Shown here in pieces: positions 5,216 to 59,364 of a stretch of 64,000 nucleotides of DNA. Origin of the DNA: a virus. Where the stretch lies: positions 65,576-129,575 of the IMG/VR virus record IMGVR_UViG_3300025534_000213; one strand, written 5' to 3'. The first letter of the stretch is position 1. Each line of letters opens with the position of its first letter. The notes under the pieces are model-generated. The model was not told where the DNA came from and did not search any database. It saw only the letters and a list, made by a program, of their open reading frames with translations. Position numbers and translations under genes: made by a program.

Positions 5216-5578
5216 TCAGCCCTCGTCGGCAGCCCAGACCAGACGATAGTGGACGCTGTCCTGTTCGGTCAGGAGGGTGATGCCACCCCGGCTGTATCGC
5301 CACGGGCCGGATAGGTTCTCGACGATCCAGACAAGACGCGCGGCCACCTCCTTCGGCCTGAGGCCATGCGTCCGGAAATTGTCGCCATGGCCGAGGAACT
5401 GGAAGCGGGGGAGGTCGGAGAGGCGCCGCGTGCCGCGTAGCCATTCGGGCGGGGGATCGCCGAGTTCGGCGATGCGAATGAGGTTCTGGTCCACCCGGTT
5501 CAGGGGATGGCCGAAGAACGCCTCCAAATGGGTGGCCTGCCTGAGCACGCGCAGCGTCACGCTGGTCGAATTCCCCAT
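5216..5578 (-). CDS. Hypothetical protein, EW...DAxxFxLxW family
   Basis: C-terminus WIVENLSGPW...TEQDSVHYRLVW. Confidence 0.7.
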   Translation of the reverse strand: MGNSTSVTLRVLRQATHLEAFFGHPLNRVDQNLIRIAELGDPPPEWLRGTRRLSDLPRFQFLGHGDNFRTHGLRPKEVAARLVWIVENLSGPWRYSRGGITLLTEQDSVHYRLVWAADEG

Positions 5579-5633
5579 GGCTGTCCCGCTGACGTGGCGC
5601 ATGGCGTGACCATGCCAGCGGGCAGGACAATAC

Positions 5634-5885
5634 TCAAGTCGGAGCGTTCGGCGCCGTGAGCAGGTGCCGCTCCACCGCCGCCATGGCGGCGGTGAGCGTG
5701 GGGAAGGTGGTCTTGCCTTGGAACAGCTTGCCGCCCTCCGTGGCGGCGTTGAGCCTCGGCACGCTGACCTGCCAGACACCGTGGACGCGCCGGTCCTTGA
5801 TGGCGCCGACCGGCTTGCCGTCGAGCCGCACGGTCAGCCCCAGCGGACCCTTGCGAAAGGTGACGCGCGGTGGTGCCTTGCCCAT
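5634..5885 (-). CDS. Hypothetical protein
   Basis: Compact ORF with typical codon usage. Confidence 0.65.
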   Translation of the reverse strand: MGKAPPRVTFRKGPLGLTVRLDGKPVGAIKDRRVHGVWQVSVPRLNAATEGGKLFQGKTTFPTLTAAMAAVERHLLTAPNAPT

Positions 5886-6010
5886 GCCCTGCGCTCCGAA
5901 GGTGGATGGCGCCCACGGTCGGGTACGATCCGACACCCCCGATTTTAGAGATCGGTCCTCTGCCAGTTGAGGTACGCGGGCGTGAGATGTAGATAACAGG
6001 GGAAAGGCGG

Positions 6011-6261
6011 TTAGGTCAACCGGAATTGTCCGGTGCTGTCGGCCTCCGTCACGGTCCGGGGCGGGCTCGCCTCACAGGACGCGAAGTAGACGGCTACGCG
6101 AAGCCCCGCCACTGAGCCCAGAAGGTCCACCCCGTCGAACGTCCCGGCGAGTATCTGCGGCACGTACCCGATCACAAGGCCGCTCAGCACGAGCGACCGT
6201 CCGAGCGCGAAGCACGTCATCACTCCAGCAACAGGGCATCGATCCACGCAAACGGGTTCAT
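6011..6261 (-). pseudogene. Small membrane-protein gene with an apparent 1-nt frameshift
   Basis: MNPFAWIDALLL runs into TGA, and the next frame continues GVMTCFALGRSLVLSGLVIG. The span is 251 nt (one short of 252). Confidence 0.4.
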
Positions 6262-6286
6262 TCGGCTTCGCCCTCGGTCGGTTTCG

Positions 6287-6589
6287 TCACATGACGGCGT
6301 GCAGGAGGATGACGGCGCCAATGACGGCGCCCCAGACGAGACCCGCACCGAGGCGGGAAGAACGGGCGGGCATCCCCTCGGCGTCCGTGGCGCGCCGCCG
6401 CCTCGTCCACTGCTTTTCCGCCCCGTAGCTCAGCCCGGTGCCGGGAACGCCGACGCTGGCACGCAGGCCACGCGTGGAAATCCCCGCACTCGCACCGGGG
6501 ATGCGGGCGCTGATGCCGATGCCGCGCAGCCCGACATTGATCCCGAGATGCTTGGTCAGCCGGATGCGCTTCCTGAACCGCAGGCCCAT
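6287..6589 (-). CDS. DUF4236-like protein with C-terminal TM segment
   Basis: MGLRFRKRIRL...GLRASVGVPGTGLSY signature. Confidence 0.8.
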   Translation of the reverse strand: MGLRFRKRIRLTKHLGINVGLRGIGISARIPGASAGISTRGLRASVGVPGTGLSYGAEKQWTRRRRATDAEGMPARSSRLGAGLVWGAVIGAVILLHAVM

Positions 6590-19578: not shown

Positions 19579-19626
19579 GCGATTTAACCAAACCACTTTC
19601 AGAAGTCCTTTCAGGAGTTGACTTTA

Positions 19627-20826
19627 ATGACGAAGCTTTTCGAGTCCCAGTGGCAGGCCACCAAGAAGGCCCTCTGCGAGGGTCGTGACCTGACCCACAA
19701 CTTCGACGGTTCTCCGAACCCCAACAAGAAGAAGATGATGGAGACCGTCCTTGAGAACACCCGCCGCGAGATGAAGCTGATGGAGGCTGCCACCGCTGGT
19801 GCGACCAACGCTGCCAACGTCGCGACGCTGAACAAGGTGATTCTCCCGGTCATCCGCCGCGTGATGCCGACCGTGATCGCCAACGAGATCATCGGCGTGC
19901 AGCCGATGACCGGCCCCGTCGCCCAGATTCACACTCTGCGCGTCCGCTACGCCGACACCTACGCTGGCGTGACCGCCGGTTCCGAGGCCCTGAGCCCGTT
20001 CGACATCGCCCGCGCCTACTCCGGCAACGGCAATGCCAACACCCCGAAGGCCGCCGCGACCTCCGCACTGGAAGGCGTCGCCGGTAACCGGATCAGCATC
20101 CAAATCCTCAAGGAAGTGGTCGAGGCCAAGACCCGCAAGCTGTCCGCTCGCTGGACCTTCGAGGCCGCTCAGGACGCGCAGGCGCAGCAGGGTATCGACA
20201 TCGAGGCCGAGATCATGGCTGCTCTGGCACAGGAGATCACCGCCGAGATCGATCAGGAGATTCTCGTCTCCCTGCGTGCTCTACCGGGCGCTCCGACCCT
20301 GACCTTCGACATGAACAACGTGACCGGCACCCCGACCTTCGTCGGCGATGTCCACGCTGCTCTGGCGATCCTGATCAACCGTCAGGCCAACCTGATCGCC
20401 GCCCGTACCCGCCGGGGCGCTGGTAACTGGTGCGTTGTTTCCCCGACCGCTCTGACCATTCTCCAGAGCGCGACGACTTCCGCGTTCGCCCGCACCACCG
20501 AGGGTGTGTTCGAGGCGCCCACGAACACCAAGTACGTCGGCACCCTGAACAACTCCATGCGCGTGTACGTTGACCAGTACGCGTCTGACCAGACCCCGGT
20601 GCTGGTGGGGTACAAGGGCAATGAGATGGACGCCGCTGCGTTCTACTGCCCGTACGTGCCGCTGACCTCCTCCGGCGTGCTGATCGACCCGAACACCATG
20701 GAGCCGGTCGTGTCCTTCATGACCCGCTATGGCTACGTCGAACTCACCAACAGCGCGTCCTCGCTGGGCAATGCGGCGGATTACTTGGGGCTCGTTGGTG
20801 TGGCTTCCAACGTGTCTTTCATGTAA
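19627..20826 (+). CDS. gp23: Major capsid protein (T4 gp23-like)
   Basis: VIRRVMPTVIANEIIGVQPMTGP, KTRKLSARWT, EITAEIDQEI, FYCPYVPL, FMTRYG. Confidence 0.97.
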   Translation: MTKLFESQWQATKKALCEGRDLTHNFDGSPNPNKKKMMETVLENTRREMKLMEAATAGATNAANVATLNKVILPVIRRVMPTVIANEIIGVQPMTGPVAQIHTLRVRYADTYAGVTAGSEALSPFDIARAYSGNGNANTPKAAATSALEGVAGNRISIQILKEVVEAKTRKLSARWTFEAAQDAQAQQGIDIEAEIMAALAQEITAEIDQEILVSLRALPGAPTLTFDMNNVTGTPTFVGDVHAALAILINRQANLIAARTRRGAGNWCVVSPTALTILQSATTSAFARTTEGVFEAPTNTKYVGTLNNSMRVYVDQYASDQTPVLVGYKGNEMDAAAFYCPYVPLTSSGVLIDPNTMEPVVSFMTRYGYVELTNSASSLGNAADYLGLVGVASNVSFM

Positions 20827-28818: not shown

Positions 28819-29625
28819 TCATTGACCGGAGTACCAGAGCCGGAACTGCACTAACTGGCTATCGGACCAGTGACCGTATAGCGGGAACTCATGTTCCGCG
28901 AGCCACGCCTCGACCTGCTCGGTGAGATCACGGCCGTGACGATGCCATTCCATCCTGCCATCAGGGAGGATGACAGACGGACCGTCCTCGCGGTGTAATT
29001 GGCCGTTCAGATACCATCCCTGTGAGCCATCAGGCTTGATGACGGCGGGGCCGTCCTCGCGGTGTGGTTCGCCGCCCAGATACCATCTCCGTGTACCATC
29101 AGCACAGATGACCGCAGGTCCCCCATCGCGGTGCAGCTTGCCACTCAGGTACCATGCCTGCGTGCCATCAGCATCGATGGCGGCAGGTCCGTCCTCACGG
29201 TGCAGTTTGCCGTGAACCCGCCATTCTTGCGAGCCATCTGCCAAGATGGCCGCAGGACCGTCATTGCGGTGCAATTGACCGTTCAAATACCACGCCTTTT
29301 CTCCGTTCGAGAGGATGAGCGCAGGACCCTCCACGCGGTGTACCAAGCCATTCAAGTACCATCTCTGTGAGCCATCGGGCTCGATGATGGCGGGTCCGTC
29401 CTCGCGGTGTAATTGGCCGTTCAGATACCATTTCAGTGTGCCGTCCGCACAGATGACCGCAGGGCCACCCACACGGTGCCGTAAGCCATTCAGATACCAT
29501 ATCCGCGTGCCATCTGCGCGAATGACAGTAGGAGCGTCCTCGCTTTGCAACTGACCGCTCACGCGCCACTTCCTTGCGCCATCCGGGAGGCAGATGGAAT
29601 GGTGTTCGATGAGAGCGTGCGTCAT
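28819..29625 (-). CDS. HREDGPA (MORN-variant-like) 22-aa repeat protein, paralogue A (about 9 repeats)
   Basis: Repeated LHREDGPA.I..DG...WYLNG; conserved C-terminal module. Confidence 0.85.
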   Translation of the reverse strand: MTHALIEHHSICLPDGARKWRVSGQLQSEDAPTVIRADGTRIWYLNGLRHRVGGPAVICADGTLKWYLNGQLHREDGPAIIEPDGSQRWYLNGLVHRVEGPALILSNGEKAWYLNGQLHRNDGPAAILADGSQEWRVHGKLHREDGPAAIDADGTQAWYLSGKLHRDGGPAVICADGTRRWYLGGEPHREDGPAVIKPDGSQGWYLNGQLHREDGPSVILPDGRMEWHRHGRDLTEQVEAWLAEHEFPLYGHWSDSQLVQFRLWYSGQ

Positions 29626-30152
29626 TGGCCGGAATACCAGATCAGAAATTCTACAAGCTGGGCGTCAGACCAGCGACCAAATGGCGGAAACTCGTGTTCC
29701 TTAAGCCACGCCTCGACCTGCTCAGTGAGACGCCGACCACGGCGGTGCCATTCCATCGTACCATCCGGGTGGACGACCGCAGGTCCATCCTCGCGGTGTA
29801 GCTTTCCGTGGACCCACCAAGCCTGTGCGCCGTTAGCGAAAATGACGGCAGGACCGTCCTCTCGGTGCCGAACGCCCTTTGACCACCATTCCTGCGTCCC
29901 ATCCTTACGGATGACCGCAGGCCCATCCTCTCGATGCTGAAAGCCGTTCATCCACCATTCCAACTTGCCGTTAGGGTGGATGACAGCAGGGCCGCCTACG
30001 CGGTGTCGCTTCCCTTTGACATGCCAAATCCGAGCGCCGTCCGCGCGAATGATGGCAGACTCATCTTCGCGGTGCTGAATGCCGTTTGTCGGCCAATCTT
30101 GTCTACCATCTGGGGGACAGGTAGGACCGTGATCAATGAGAGCGCGCGTCAT
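29622..30152 (-). CDS. HREDGPA repeat protein, paralogue B (about 5 repeats)
   Basis: Same repeat and C-terminal module; ATGA-coupled. Confidence 0.85.
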   Translation of the reverse strand: MTRALIDHGPTCPPDGRQDWPTNGIQHREDESAIIRADGARIWHVKGKRHRVGGPAVIHPNGKLEWWMNGFQHREDGPAVIRKDGTQEWWSKGVRHREDGPAVIFANGAQAWWVHGKLHREDGPAVVHPDGTMEWHRRGRRLTEQVEAWLKEHEFPPFGRWSDAQLVEFLIWYSGQ

Positions 30153-30826
30153 TGACTCGAATACCAGATCAGAAATTCCACAAGCTGGGCGTCAGACCAG
30201 TGGCCGCACGGCGGGAATTCATGTTCCCTGATCCACGCCTCGACCCGCTTGGTAAGCGGCCGATCATGGCGGTACCATTCCATCATGCCGTTCGGGAAAA
30301 TGATCGAAGGCCCATCGTCACGGTGTTGCAGGTTATGTTGTATCCATATCCGCAATCCGTCGGCTTGAATGATCGCAGGTCCATCCTCGCGGTGGAACTC
30401 ACCGTTCACGTGCCATTCTTGTGTGCCATCGGCATCAATGACGGCAGGCCCATCCACGCGGTGCAATTGGCCGTTCATCCACCATTGTTGCGTGCCATCA
30501 GGCTCAATGACGGAGGGTCCGTCCTCTCGATGTAACTGACCGCCCTGATACCATTTCTGTGGGCCGTCTGGCCTGATCGAGGCAGAGCCATCCTCGTCGT
30601 GCAGATTGCCATCTGCCCGCCAGTCCCGCCGACCATCCGGGCATGTGCTCATCCCATCCTTTGCGAGGTCGCTGGCGGCTTCGTGGGGCGGCTTTCGCAT
30701 TTCGTCGTTCGCAACGGAGTGGCGATGCACAATCGGCATGGACTTTCCCTCACTCGGCCGAGGGCAACCGTCCGGGGTTGCCGTATCCGGCAGGCGGTTG
30801 TTCGCTTCGACAATGCGGGACTTCAT
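30149..30826 (-). CDS. HREDGPA repeat protein, paralogue C (about 5 repeats, longer N-terminus)
   Basis: Same repeat and C-terminal module; GAGGGG RBS before ATG 30826. Confidence 0.8.
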   Translation of the reverse strand: MKSRIVEANNRLPDTATPDGCPRPSEGKSMPIVHRHSVANDEMRKPPHEAASDLAKDGMSTCPDGRRDWRADGNLHDEDGSASIRPDGPQKWYQGGQLHREDGPSVIEPDGTQQWWMNGQLHRVDGPAVIDADGTQEWHVNGEFHREDGPAIIQADGLRIWIQHNLQHRDDGPSIIFPNGMMEWYRHDRPLTKRVEAWIREHEFPPCGHWSDAQLVEFLIWYSSQ

Positions 30827-30892: not shown

Positions 30893-30969
30893 TGGAGGGT
30901 GCGAGCGGGATCGAACCGCCAACCTCAGGCTTATGAGACCTGCGCTCTGACCGGTTGAGCTACGCACCC
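30893..30969 (-). tRNA. tRNA-Met or Ile2 (CAT), not initiator type
   Basis: Cloverleaf, G1-C72 pair, U73, encoded CCA. Confidence 0.9.
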
Positions 30970-30976
30970 CGAGAAA

Positions 30977-31055
30977 GGCGGCCCCGGAGGGACTCGAACC
31001 CCCATTCGCATCCGATTACGGGTTGCCGGGTAGAAACCGGCGCCGATACGGGGCC
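30977..31055 (-). tRNA. Non-canonical tRNA-like gene, nominal anticodon TCT (Arg), no standard D-arm
   Basis: Acceptor GGCCCCG/CGGGGCC, T-arm GGGGG-TTCGAGT-CCCTC, arm GCCGG-TTTCTAC-CCGGC, only 7 nt between acceptor and anticodon arm. Confidence 0.75.
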
Positions 31056-31060
31056 AAGCA

Positions 31061-31137
31061 TGGCGGTCCCATGAGGATTCGAACCTCAAACCTCCGGCTC
31101 CGCAAGCCGACGCTCTATCCAGTTGAGCTATGGGACC
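31061..31137 (-). tRNA. tRNA-Arg(GCG)
   Basis: Cloverleaf, loop TTGCGGA, A20, encoded CCA. Confidence 0.93.
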
Positions 31138-31147
31138 AGAAAGGATG

Positions 31148-31221
31148 TGGATGCCCGAGTAGGATTCGAACCTACGTCTCAGGGGCCAAGACCCTGCGTT
31201 CTGCCGCTAAACTATCGGGCA
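31148..31221 (-). tRNA. tRNA-Gln(TTG) with C33
   Basis: U1-A72 pair, loop TCTTGGC, encoded CCA. Confidence 0.88.
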
Positions 31222-31236
31222 GCAGATGAGGGGTTT

Positions 31237-31314
31237 TGGGGTGAGCGACGAGACTCGAACTCGCGACCTTCGGTGTCACAAACCGACGCTCTGACCAACT
31301 GAGCTACGCTCACC
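31237..31314 (-). tRNA. tRNA-His(GTG) with G-1 and C73
   Basis: Cloverleaf, encoded CCA. Confidence 0.95.
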
Positions 31315-31334
31315 GTGGAGCGGTGGTGCTGGTA

Positions 31335-31408
31335 TGGACACAGGTGGACTCGAACCACCGACATGCGGTGTGTAAGACCGCTGTTCTACCGGGCTGAACT
31401 ATGTGTCC
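31335..31408 (-). tRNA. tRNA-Val(TAC), CCA not encoded directly
   Basis: Cloverleaf; after A73 the gene reads TACCA. Confidence 0.9.
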
Positions 31409-31422
31409 GCCAACCAGCGGGG

Positions 31423-31545
31423 TCAGATGCGGCGATGTCGCATTCGAGCGGCGACGACCACCCCGGTGGGTTGTCGTCGCATACGGAGGACGCGCTTCGA
31501 CGCGTCGTCAAGCGCAGCAGCGCAAGCCCTTCTCGCGTCGAACAT
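31423..31545 (-). CDS. Possible 40-aa Arg-rich peptide
   Basis: Strong GGAGG RBS; below the ORF-track cutoff. Confidence 0.4.
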   Translation of the reverse strand: MFDARRACAAALDDASKRVLRMRRQPTGVVVAARMRHRRI

Positions 31546-31585
31546 GGGTTGATCCTCCAAAATGGTGAATTCAGTGTACCACTAC

Positions 31586-32272
31586 CTATTTAACGTCGTC
31601 AAGTGATTTCCCGCCCGAAAGGTGCGAAAAATCCCGGAATACCCGGTGTGCGACCTGATCCTTGCCGCCGTGCTTGGCGCTGTACAGGAGGTCATCGACC
31701 ATGGCGAGCGCGGCGGAGGCATCATCGGGTGGCATCAGGAAGGTGACCACGCCAACCGATGCCGTCACCGGCCATCCGGCCGAGGTCATGCGCTTGGCGA
31801 TCTCGGCCCTGATCCGTTCGCCGACCACGGCCGCGTCAACACTGCCGCTGAGCAGCACGACGAATTCGTCGCCACCGATCCGGGCAGCCATGTCCTCCCG
31901 CCGCAGACTGGTGCTCAGCACCTCCGCCGCCTGCCGCAGCGCCCGGTCCCCGGCGGCATGGCCGTGGCGGTCATTGACCTGCTTGAACCCATCGAGGTCG
32001 ATGGCAATAAGCGAGAATGGTTCGGCGTGCCGCTTGCGGCGCGCGATGGCCCGCTCGATGGCGTCGATGATGGCAGGACGGTTGGCGATGCCGGTCAGGG
32101 CATCTGTCAGGGCCACACGGCGGATACGATCCAAGGCTCGGCGCATCTCCTCAATGGCTTCCGCCACCTGCTTGAGGGCGGGAGCGCACTCCGCACGTCT
32201 CGCAGCAAGTTCACGCAGGACATCAAGACTTTCGGCGCACCGCTTTTCGAGTGCATCGGGGGTGAAGGGCAT
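31586..32272 (-). CDS. Diguanylate cyclase (GGDEF domain with N-terminal coiled coil)
   Basis: TDALTGIANR, IDLDGFKQVNDRHGHAAGD, RRED I-site, GGDEF. Confidence 0.92.
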   Translation of the reverse strand: MPFTPDALEKRCAESLDVLRELAARRAECAPALKQVAEAIEEMRRALDRIRRVALTDALTGIANRPAIIDAIERAIARRKRHAEPFSLIAIDLDGFKQVNDRHGHAAGDRALRQAAEVLSTSLRREDMAARIGGDEFVVLLSGSVDAAVVGERIRAEIAKRMTSAGWPVTASVGVVTFLMPPDDASAALAMVDDLLYSAKHGGKDQVAHRVFRDFSHLSGGKSLDDVK

Positions 32273-32305
32273 GGTTGACGCACCAATCGCTTCGAGTATG
32301 CGCGC

Positions 32306-32333
32306 AACCTACCGAGGCACCATTATATGTCAA
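32306..32333 (-). promoter_or_regulatory. Sigma70-type (early) promoter of the DGC-tRNA unit
   Basis: TTGACA-16 nt-TAGGTT with GG before the -10 box. Confidence 0.65.
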
Positions 32334-32390
32334 TCGAATTAATTCGCTCGTCAGATCAGTCCGGCTCGAAAAGAAATTAGTCGTGGTCGT

Positions 32391-42930: not shown

Positions 42931-43019
42931 GTTGGAATCCTCTCGTGTCTCTCAGGACCATACTGCGTAAACACGGTGATTCAACCAAATTAATTCGGTC
43001 AAGATGGACTGGTGGTGAC

Positions 43020-57139: not shown

Positions 57140-57177
57140 CCTGAAAATGCTCCGCGTCTAAAATGGGTTTCTGGTGG

Positions 57178-59325: not shown

Positions 59326-59364
59326 TTTCTGAAATGCTCCGCGCGGGCTCAAATTGCGTCTGCT

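Follow-up and report, generated by a model that had tools for sequence, protein, structure and literature searches.

A stand-alone GGDEF diguanylate cyclase in a megaphage, apparently derived from a GAF-GGDEF sensor enzyme by in-frame loss of the sensor core

The stretch of DNA analyzed here (the window, 64,000 nucleotides) belongs to the record of an uncultivated virus in IMG/VR (191,473 bp, from a bioreactor metagenome), for which CheckV estimates a completeness of 38%. On the minus strand of the window, positions 31586-32272 (stop codon included) encode a stand-alone diguanylate cyclase of 228 amino acids (P0001), and the same product was called by gene callers in two independent assemblies. 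The GGDEF catalytic domain comprises residues 54-205 (31658-32113, minus strand), as delimited by Pfam and supported by sequence matches to the PDB and by Foldseek. The match to the Pfam GGDEF family (PF00990) has an E-value of 2.8e-37 and a score of 128.4 bits against a cut-off of 23.8, and extends over profile positions 1-160 of 161; no further domain was detected by Pfam in the 228-residue protein, and GAF in particular was not matched. Solved diguanylate cyclases that match the phage protein at E<=1e-10 amount to 47 PDB entries, the best with an E-value of 6e-31, and among phage protein families the cyclase matches seven PHROG families, e.g., phrog_5594.

The active-site motif G133-G-D-E-F137 (31862-31876, minus strand) is preceded, with a spacer of five residues (MAARI), by an inhibitory site of the RxxD type, R124-R-E-D127 (31892-31903, minus strand). 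Arg124 and Asp127 are conserved in both homologue alignments (A1 and A2), and the position of RxxD five residues ahead of GGDEF assigns the protein to the I-site class of product-inhibited cyclases. The remaining motif residues, i.e., Asp92, Asp94, Lys97, Asn100, His105, Asp109, Lys200 and Lys204, are present on direct reading of the translation, and the motif residues sit in invariant or nearly invariant columns of the 65-sequence alignment A2. We take Asp92, Lys97, Asn100, Asp109, Lys200 and Lys204 to be the counterparts of PleD Asp327, Lys332, Asn335, Asp344, Lys442 and Arg446, respectively; by PleD numbering, the motif residues represent the metal, guanine, phosphate, I-site and A-site positions. 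By every sequence criterion, the phage cyclase is catalytically intact. This is in agreement with the first-pass annotation of the locus, which had described an intact GGDEF motif, intact metal- and GTP-binding residues and an RxxD I-site, and all of these are upheld by the Pfam score and by direct reading of the residues.

The AlphaFold2 model of the protein (mean pLDDT 89.6) consists of one helix, residues 5-54, followed by a canonical GGDEF fold with pLDDT values above 95 across the domain. The single helix, and the lack of any other Pfam domain, fit the earlier description of a sensor-less enzyme with only a coiled coil ahead of GGDEF. In Foldseek, cyclases with a stalk or coiled coil rank highest, i.e., DgcB (PDB code 6ttr), SiaD, WspR and a GCN4-WspR fusion, and PleD is also matched; the Foldseek probability is 1.00 for DgcB, WspR and PleD. 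Read from the sequence, the a and d heptad positions of the helix are occupied by Leu33, Val36, Ile40, Met43, Leu47, Ile50 and Ala54. Pro31 is located mid-helix, which makes a helical hairpin as possible as a coiled coil, and a homodimer complex prediction for the phage cyclase gave a score of 0.28 relative to a mark of 0.42, which speaks neither for nor against pairing.

The relatives of the protein assign a history to this helix. Among 5.8 billion proteins searched, no other sequence clustered with that of the phage (a singleton cluster), and nearly all of its best 40 relatives, with 45-60% identity, combine GAF and GGDEF in about 335 residues; the named ones among these 40 are from Roseicella, Plastoroseomonas and one Acetobacteraceae MAG. 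The closest in sequence are the Acetobacteraceae GAF-GGDEF cyclases of Roseicella aquatilis and Plastoroseomonas hellenica (P0012 and P0034), which belong to the same tree clade as the phage protein, are 45-60% identical to it over the part that begins with the last GAF helix and runs to the C-terminus, and share with it GGDEF, RxxD and the linker LELRRA...ALTDALTG. These cellular enzymes possess a full GAF domain (total length about 335 residues), whereas the phage protein lacks about 90 residues of the GAF core. In a tree of the shared region, the phage protein is placed in a clade of 38 rows with 95% support, 34 of which have a GAF-sized N-terminus, and within this clade it is sister to all others (89% support; the tree is unrooted).

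Profiles of the cellular homologues were used to locate the boundaries of the retained parts. In a full-length profile built from 38 homologues, phage residues 20-214 correspond to model positions 138-334, which span the last GAF helix, the linker and then GGDEF to its end. On the basis of this profile, the AlphaFold2 model and the heptad, residues 20-54 (32111-32215, minus strand) are assigned to the last GAF helix and the linker, or stalk, helix. The N-terminal segment, residues 6-33 (32174-32257, minus strand), is assigned as a remnant of the first GAF helix, a1: an HMM built from the N-terminal parts of 37 GAF-GGDEF homologues places these residues on the a1 helix at 11.0 bits, a score reached by 4 of 5000 shuffles of residues 1-33 and by 1 of 5000 shuffles of residues 1-40 (p about 0.0002-0.0008). 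A tblastn search with GAF N-termini against the phage gave an independent in-frame match at cyclase residues 8-29; the a1-helix profile test was designed after this match had been seen. A shorter N-terminal profile that did not include the a1 helix gave no signal, with 757 of 2000 shuffles scoring equally well, and no GAF remnant was found elsewhere in the 191-kb record. Judged by these alignments, the phage protein is a GAF a1 helix joined to the last GAF helix, linker and GGDEF domain, with the ligand-binding core of about 90 amino acids missing. As an LxxLA pattern is present in both helices, the deletion junction can be narrowed down only to residues 20-33.

As to the source of the gene, species-representative genomes from the family of an Elioraea MAG were compared with a control sample from the Bosea order. 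At E<=1e-35, 10 of 151 genomes match in the former, with 52-53% identity at best, compared with 3 of 151 in the control (best identity 43%). Since the Elioraea-family sample outscores the control, the comparison points to, rather than proves, an Acetobacteraceae-like source of the gene and probably also an Acetobacteraceae-like host. The GC content at third codon positions is 75.5%, inside the range of the phage genes measured, relative to 91.5% in a cellular homologue, and this phage-like value indicates that the gene is not a fresh capture. A full-length GAF+GGDEF gene, the product of which is 58% identical to the phage cyclase, was also observed on a viral-classed contig (IMG/VR 3300048014_000152; L002, positions 5551-6498); it lies at the end of this 16-kb, 70%-GC contig, which may include the host flank of a prophage or may be misclassified.

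The architecture that results from the deletion can be compared with that of cyclases of known structure. The best Foldseek match to the phage model, Caulobacter crescentus DgcB (6ttr; E-value 1.3e-17, TM-score 0.83 on the target, identity only about 31%), likewise has an N-terminal helix or coiled coil and one complete GGDEF domain with RxxD, and Caulobacter DgcA (CC3285), which we take to be a small sensor-less cyclase of about 230 residues, is close in length to the 228 residues of the phage protein. DgcB and DgcA are, however, chromosomal bacterial genes, and the phage helix appears to be a GAF remnant rather than a dedicated coiled coil. In sensor-coupled cyclases, the sensor governs the pairing of the linker helices and hence whether two GGDEF domains can meet, and when the sensor is swapped for a constitutive zipper, an active cyclase is obtained. 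The fusion of the GCN4 leucine zipper with WspR (3i5c), in which a constitutive dimerizing helix takes the place of the sensor, is a laboratory counterpart of the possible product of the deletion, although GCN4-WspR is an artificial construct and the phage helix a predicted dimerizer. With the sensor core lost and a clean a/d heptad leading into GGDEF, a ligand-independent dimeric cyclase is expected, the output of which would be capped at RxxD.

The phage origin of the DNA, which the first-pass annotation had also proposed, is confirmed by structural genes in the window, i.e., those for a portal (phrog_213, E-value 1e-102), a tape measure protein and two tail-fibre proteins, and by the IMG/VR record itself. 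A cyclase product with 100% identity is encoded on a 484,642-bp ENA contig, and the agreement of this length with the CheckV estimate indicates that the 191-kb record is a piece of a megaphage genome of about 485 kb. IMG/VR contains two relatives at roughly the family level, one of 608 kb (100% complete) and one of 561 kb (97% complete), with 67-69% identity in the portal and about 64-72% in PhoH. GGDEF is absent from both of these near-complete genomes, and the cyclase gene is therefore a lineage-specific accessory that is dispensable for such phages. The cyclase neighborhood is not syntenic with these related megaphages, only PhoH being shared in that comparison; a megablast search of the cyclase locus against GenBank phages returned no match, and for a neighboring 202-residue protein no relatives were found among viral contigs. 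Elsewhere, reads and contigs contain identical pieces of the same phage only, namely several low-depth ones in a second bioreactor study and one short piece each in two further runs, and the phage cyclase is known from one phage lineage and in a single sequence variant, with no divergent copy among the reads and contigs searched.

Upstream of the coding sequence lies a promoter of recognizable type. The -35 box TTGACA (32328-32333, minus strand), read directly, takes the same position relative to an adjacent palindrome in five of five members of a family of similar sites, and it is followed after 16 nt by a probable -10 box, TAGGTT (32306-32311, minus strand), in the layout common to the family. 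Directly upstream of the -35 box is the perfect 12-nt palindrome CGAATTAATTCG (32335-32346), of which the record holds five copies, and which may be an UP element or, being perfect, an operator for a dimeric regulator. The family layout consists of the palindrome CGAATTAATTYG, one purine, a TTGACA-like box, 16 nt and a TAGGTT-like box. When at most one mismatch is allowed, CGAATTAATTYGRTTG occurs in 5 copies in the 191-kb record and in none of 40 Markov-1 simulated genomes, and the window contains 2 palindrome-promoter copies compared with 0 in 100 shuffles. The sites are located at window positions 32306-32346 and 42982-42997 and at genome positions 139860, 171367 and 176429 (loci L175-L177). 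At the other four, the -10 boxes TATGGT, TAGGCT, TATCAG and TAGAAA have the same spacing, and looser variants composed of an AT-rich element and TTGAC are also present.

Alphaproteobacterial promoters of the sigma-70 type have the form TTGAC-N17-TATNNT, and the family layout appears to fit the sigma-70 type of the host. The gene had earlier been assigned a strong TTGACA promoter. The box at 32333-32328 is indeed present, and its membership in a five-member family with the palindrome-TTGACA layout argues for a sigma-70-type promoter of the cyclase's own; the adjoining TATAAT, however, directly abuts TTGACA with no spacer and is thus wrongly spaced, and a consensus scanner called no promoter at the TTGACA/TAGGTT site. 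TAGGTT is the likelier working -10 box because four other sites have the same layout, and it is the existence of the family that makes the cyclase promoter credible. The genes behind the other four sites encode a 73-residue protein with two TM helices, a 122-residue ORFan, a 468-residue membrane and coiled-coil protein, and a lipoprotein-like protein of 157 residues, the last followed by a gene for an 83-residue membrane protein. The promoter family, like the apparent derivation of the cyclase from a GAF-GGDEF sensor with its core removed, goes beyond what the first-pass annotation had described.

A different motif, TTTCAGR, occurs 33 times in the window relative to about 7.4 expected occurrences, mostly 7-25 nt before start codons (e.g., 19597-19615, 57140-57146 and 59328-59334), and precedes tail-fibre genes as well as a probable capsid gene (19618-20826); it possibly marks late promoters or sites of translation initiation. 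TTTCAGR was not found before the cyclase gene, and its absence there fits a non-late class of expression, possibly the early one that the first-pass annotation had proposed.

Downstream, the interval from the cyclase to tRNA-Val contains a 40-residue ORF (31423-31545, minus strand) whose ATG is preceded at a distance of 7 nt by the Shine-Dalgarno sequence GGAGGA; its product matched no family. The ORF is followed by five tRNA genes identified by a tRNA search (Val, His, Gln, Arg and Met; 30893-31408, minus strand). A second promoter-like site, TTGACG-18-TACACT with a TG element, is located over the stop codon of the cyclase (31573-31602, minus strand); with 9 of 12 matches it is weak, since chance alone would give about 0.8 sites of this quality in the region. 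No convincing terminator was found after the cyclase, the sole candidate being a weak 5-bp hairpin inside the coding sequence with a fold z-score of -1.07, and read-through from the cyclase into the 40-residue ORF and the five tRNA genes is therefore possible, such that the cyclase promoter could possibly drive the tRNA cluster. Directly downstream of this cluster, positions 28819-30800 (minus strand) hold three tandem paralogues with MORN-like repeats, DGxxxWYLNGxLHREDGPAVI, which share the end tail EAWLxEHEFPxxGxWSDxQLVxFxxWYSGQ and to which Pfam gives only weak DUF6745 matches.

In total, there are 8 tRNA genes in the 64-kb window and 20 tRNA-clan matches over the whole 191-kb record. A tRNA with the anticodon CUA (5907-5981, minus strand), called tRNA-Pyl by ARAGORN, is a potential amber suppressor; in long ORFs with high GC3, TGA, TAG and TAA serve as stop codons 112, 22 and 22 times, respectively, counts that in GC-rich DNA do not discriminate TAG recoding. 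A second dense tRNA cluster was observed in L184 (1417-2127 and 5415-6393; genome positions about 170.4-175.4 kb), where one gene scores as tRNA-Sec with 51 bits (gathering score 47) and where one tRNA match is 157 nt long and may contain an intron or insertion.

We assign a probability of about 60% to the interpretation that the gene encodes a working, sensor-deleted, product-inhibited cyclase that was captured from an alphaproteobacterial GAF-GGDEF enzyme, is expressed from its own promoter and raises c-di-GMP in the host. In the mechanism proposed, the ~485-kb megaphage would have captured the gene of an alphaproteobacterial, probably Acetobacteraceae, GAF-GGDEF sensor enzyme, and the GAF ligand-binding core would have been lost in frame, leaving the a1 helix, the last GAF helix with the linker, and the whole catalytic domain. 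The helical stalk would probably pair two catalytic domains in the absence of the sensor, and c-di-GMP would be made from GTP whenever the protein is expressed, with product feedback at RxxD as the sole brake; retention of this site means that the c-di-GMP level reached should be capped. Transcription would proceed from the gene's own promoter of the host-RNA-polymerase type, whose family would also drive genes for envelope proteins and ORFans.

Bacteria change between motile and sessile life mainly through c-di-GMP, which also drives the cell cycle of alphaproteobacteria; in these bacteria, a rise is expected to repress flagella and pili, to induce exopolysaccharide or cellulose and to shift the CckA-CtrA system. 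Infection would be expected to raise c-di-GMP in the host, with motility and pili down, exopolysaccharide up and CtrA-type cell-cycle control altered. Altered receptors, attachment or cell-cycle control, put forward in the first-pass annotation, may be among the benefits to the phage. A search of the 191-kb record of the ~485-kb genome found no PilZ, EAL or HD-GYP-type (HD_5) domain, no c-di-GMP riboswitch, and no integrase, sigma-70 region 2 or RNAP beta; with neither a c-di-GMP receptor nor a degrading enzyme in these 191 kb, no phage-side circuit is visible there. A more far-reaching version, which we offer tentatively and with odds well short of even, holds that excision of the GAF core in frame created an always-on signal generator within a co-regulated surface-remodeling set behind the palindrome-flanked sigma-70 promoter, this set being composed of the cyclase, the lipoprotein-like protein, the small membrane proteins, the membrane coiled-coil protein and the ORFan. 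If such a program exists, superinfecting phages might be excluded, for example, or infected cells glued into flocs.

The absence of the gene from the two closest near-complete megaphages, the non-syntenic neighborhood and the single known sequence variant would also be expected of a neutral or near-neutral passenger, i.e., a host GAF-GGDEF fragment acquired through illegitimate recombination that is still intact by chance and has no role in infection. Such an origin is unlikely, however, given that the frame is intact with all functional residues kept, the composition is phage-like and differs from that of the cellular homologue, the promoter belongs to the phage's own family, and the in-frame deletion takes out just the sensor core. 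It is rather improbable, too, that the protein acts as a dominant modulator that pairs with a host GAF-GGDEF homologue and locks it in the active or inactive state, either in addition to forming a homodimer or in place of it. The terminal GAF helices, a1 and the last, are the usual dimer-interface helices of GAF domains; the phage protein retains both while the ligand pocket is gone, and its identity to the cellular family is 45-60%, all of which is compatible with such pairing, but a pure mimic has no need of an intact active site and I-site.

We consider it very unlikely that the enzyme is a tool of counter-defence or conflict, the cyclic dinucleotide of which interferes with nucleotide-based immunity, by receptor competition or replacement of a decoy, or with rival elements. 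Iyer et al. (2017, PMC5512222) proposed a role of this kind for GGDEF domains in the polyvalent proteins of phages, and defences based on decoy nucleotides exist (PMC12657218). Against it, no sponge, nuclease or CBASS-related gene adjoins the cyclase, and known STING-type effectors are activated, not inhibited, by c-di-GMP. Activation of some such defences, which the first-pass annotation itself had brought up, would be a cost to the phage and speaks against, not for, the model of the first-pass annotation, in which a high c-di-GMP state is forced upon the host. Finally, it is scarcely credible that another product is made, e.g., 3'3'-cGAMP or c-di-AMP, as in hybrid promiscuous (Hypr) GGDEF enzymes: GGDEF enzymes of altered specificity do exist, as Hallberg et al. 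reportedly described in 2016, and Hypr enzymes have Ser in place of Asp at the position of PleD Asp344, but the cGAMP-associated Ser is not found there in the phage protein, which has Asp109 (in HAAGD) as in PleD, a canonical Asn100, and ordinary cyclases as nearest relatives. Asp109 at the guanine-specificity position favors c-di-GMP over cGAMP as the product.

The preferred interpretation, a sensor-deleted cyclase that raises host c-di-GMP, has a precedent with respect to its physiological outcome. The YIP peptides of PB1-like lytic Pseudomonas phages are produced early, activate YfiN and increase c-di-GMP in the host, with motility and twitching down and biofilm up (De Smet et al. 2021, PMC8085984). 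Whereas these small peptides act by stimulating a cyclase of the host, the megaphage brings the cyclase itself; the proposed physiological end is the same. GGDEF genes as such are already known from the annotation of many phage genomes: a 'probable DgcQ' is annotated in phage G (PMC12484599), a Mu-like virus of the Cariaco Basin carries a GGDEF gene (PMC7785012), and Iyer et al. (2017, PMC5512222) predicted GGDEF modules in polyvalent virion proteins. In the latter, GGDEF is embedded in a large multidomain virion or ejection protein, whereas the phage cyclase is a stand-alone ORF of 228 residues with its own promoter. Compared with other phage GGDEF genes, it is distinguished by being stand-alone, by the retained I-site, by a GAF-GGDEF parent that can be traced and by its setting in a ~485-kb megaphage; specific to it are also the in-frame removal of the GAF core and the promoter family. 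Among the papers found, in which phage GGDEF genes are annotated or predicted only, none describes a phage cyclase that was assayed biochemically.

Small, stand-alone, equipped with all catalytic residues and placed behind a defined promoter, the megaphage enzyme provides a convenient test case, and its identifiable cellular parents allow the sensor-deleted and sensor-bearing forms to be compared directly. If the enzyme is active, a megaphage of lytic type could directly set a second messenger of its host, in a setting of bioreactor flocs and biofilms where aggregation is under c-di-GMP control. A second phage-borne GGDEF gene was observed in a low-GC jumbo phage of 221 kb (IMG/VR 3300020147_000065; L169, positions 1192-1974). 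It encodes an unrelated GGDEF protein of 260 residues that is 33% identical to the megaphage cyclase and has an N-terminal part of about 100 residues to which no Pfam family is assigned, and by its sequence it appears to be an independent acquisition.
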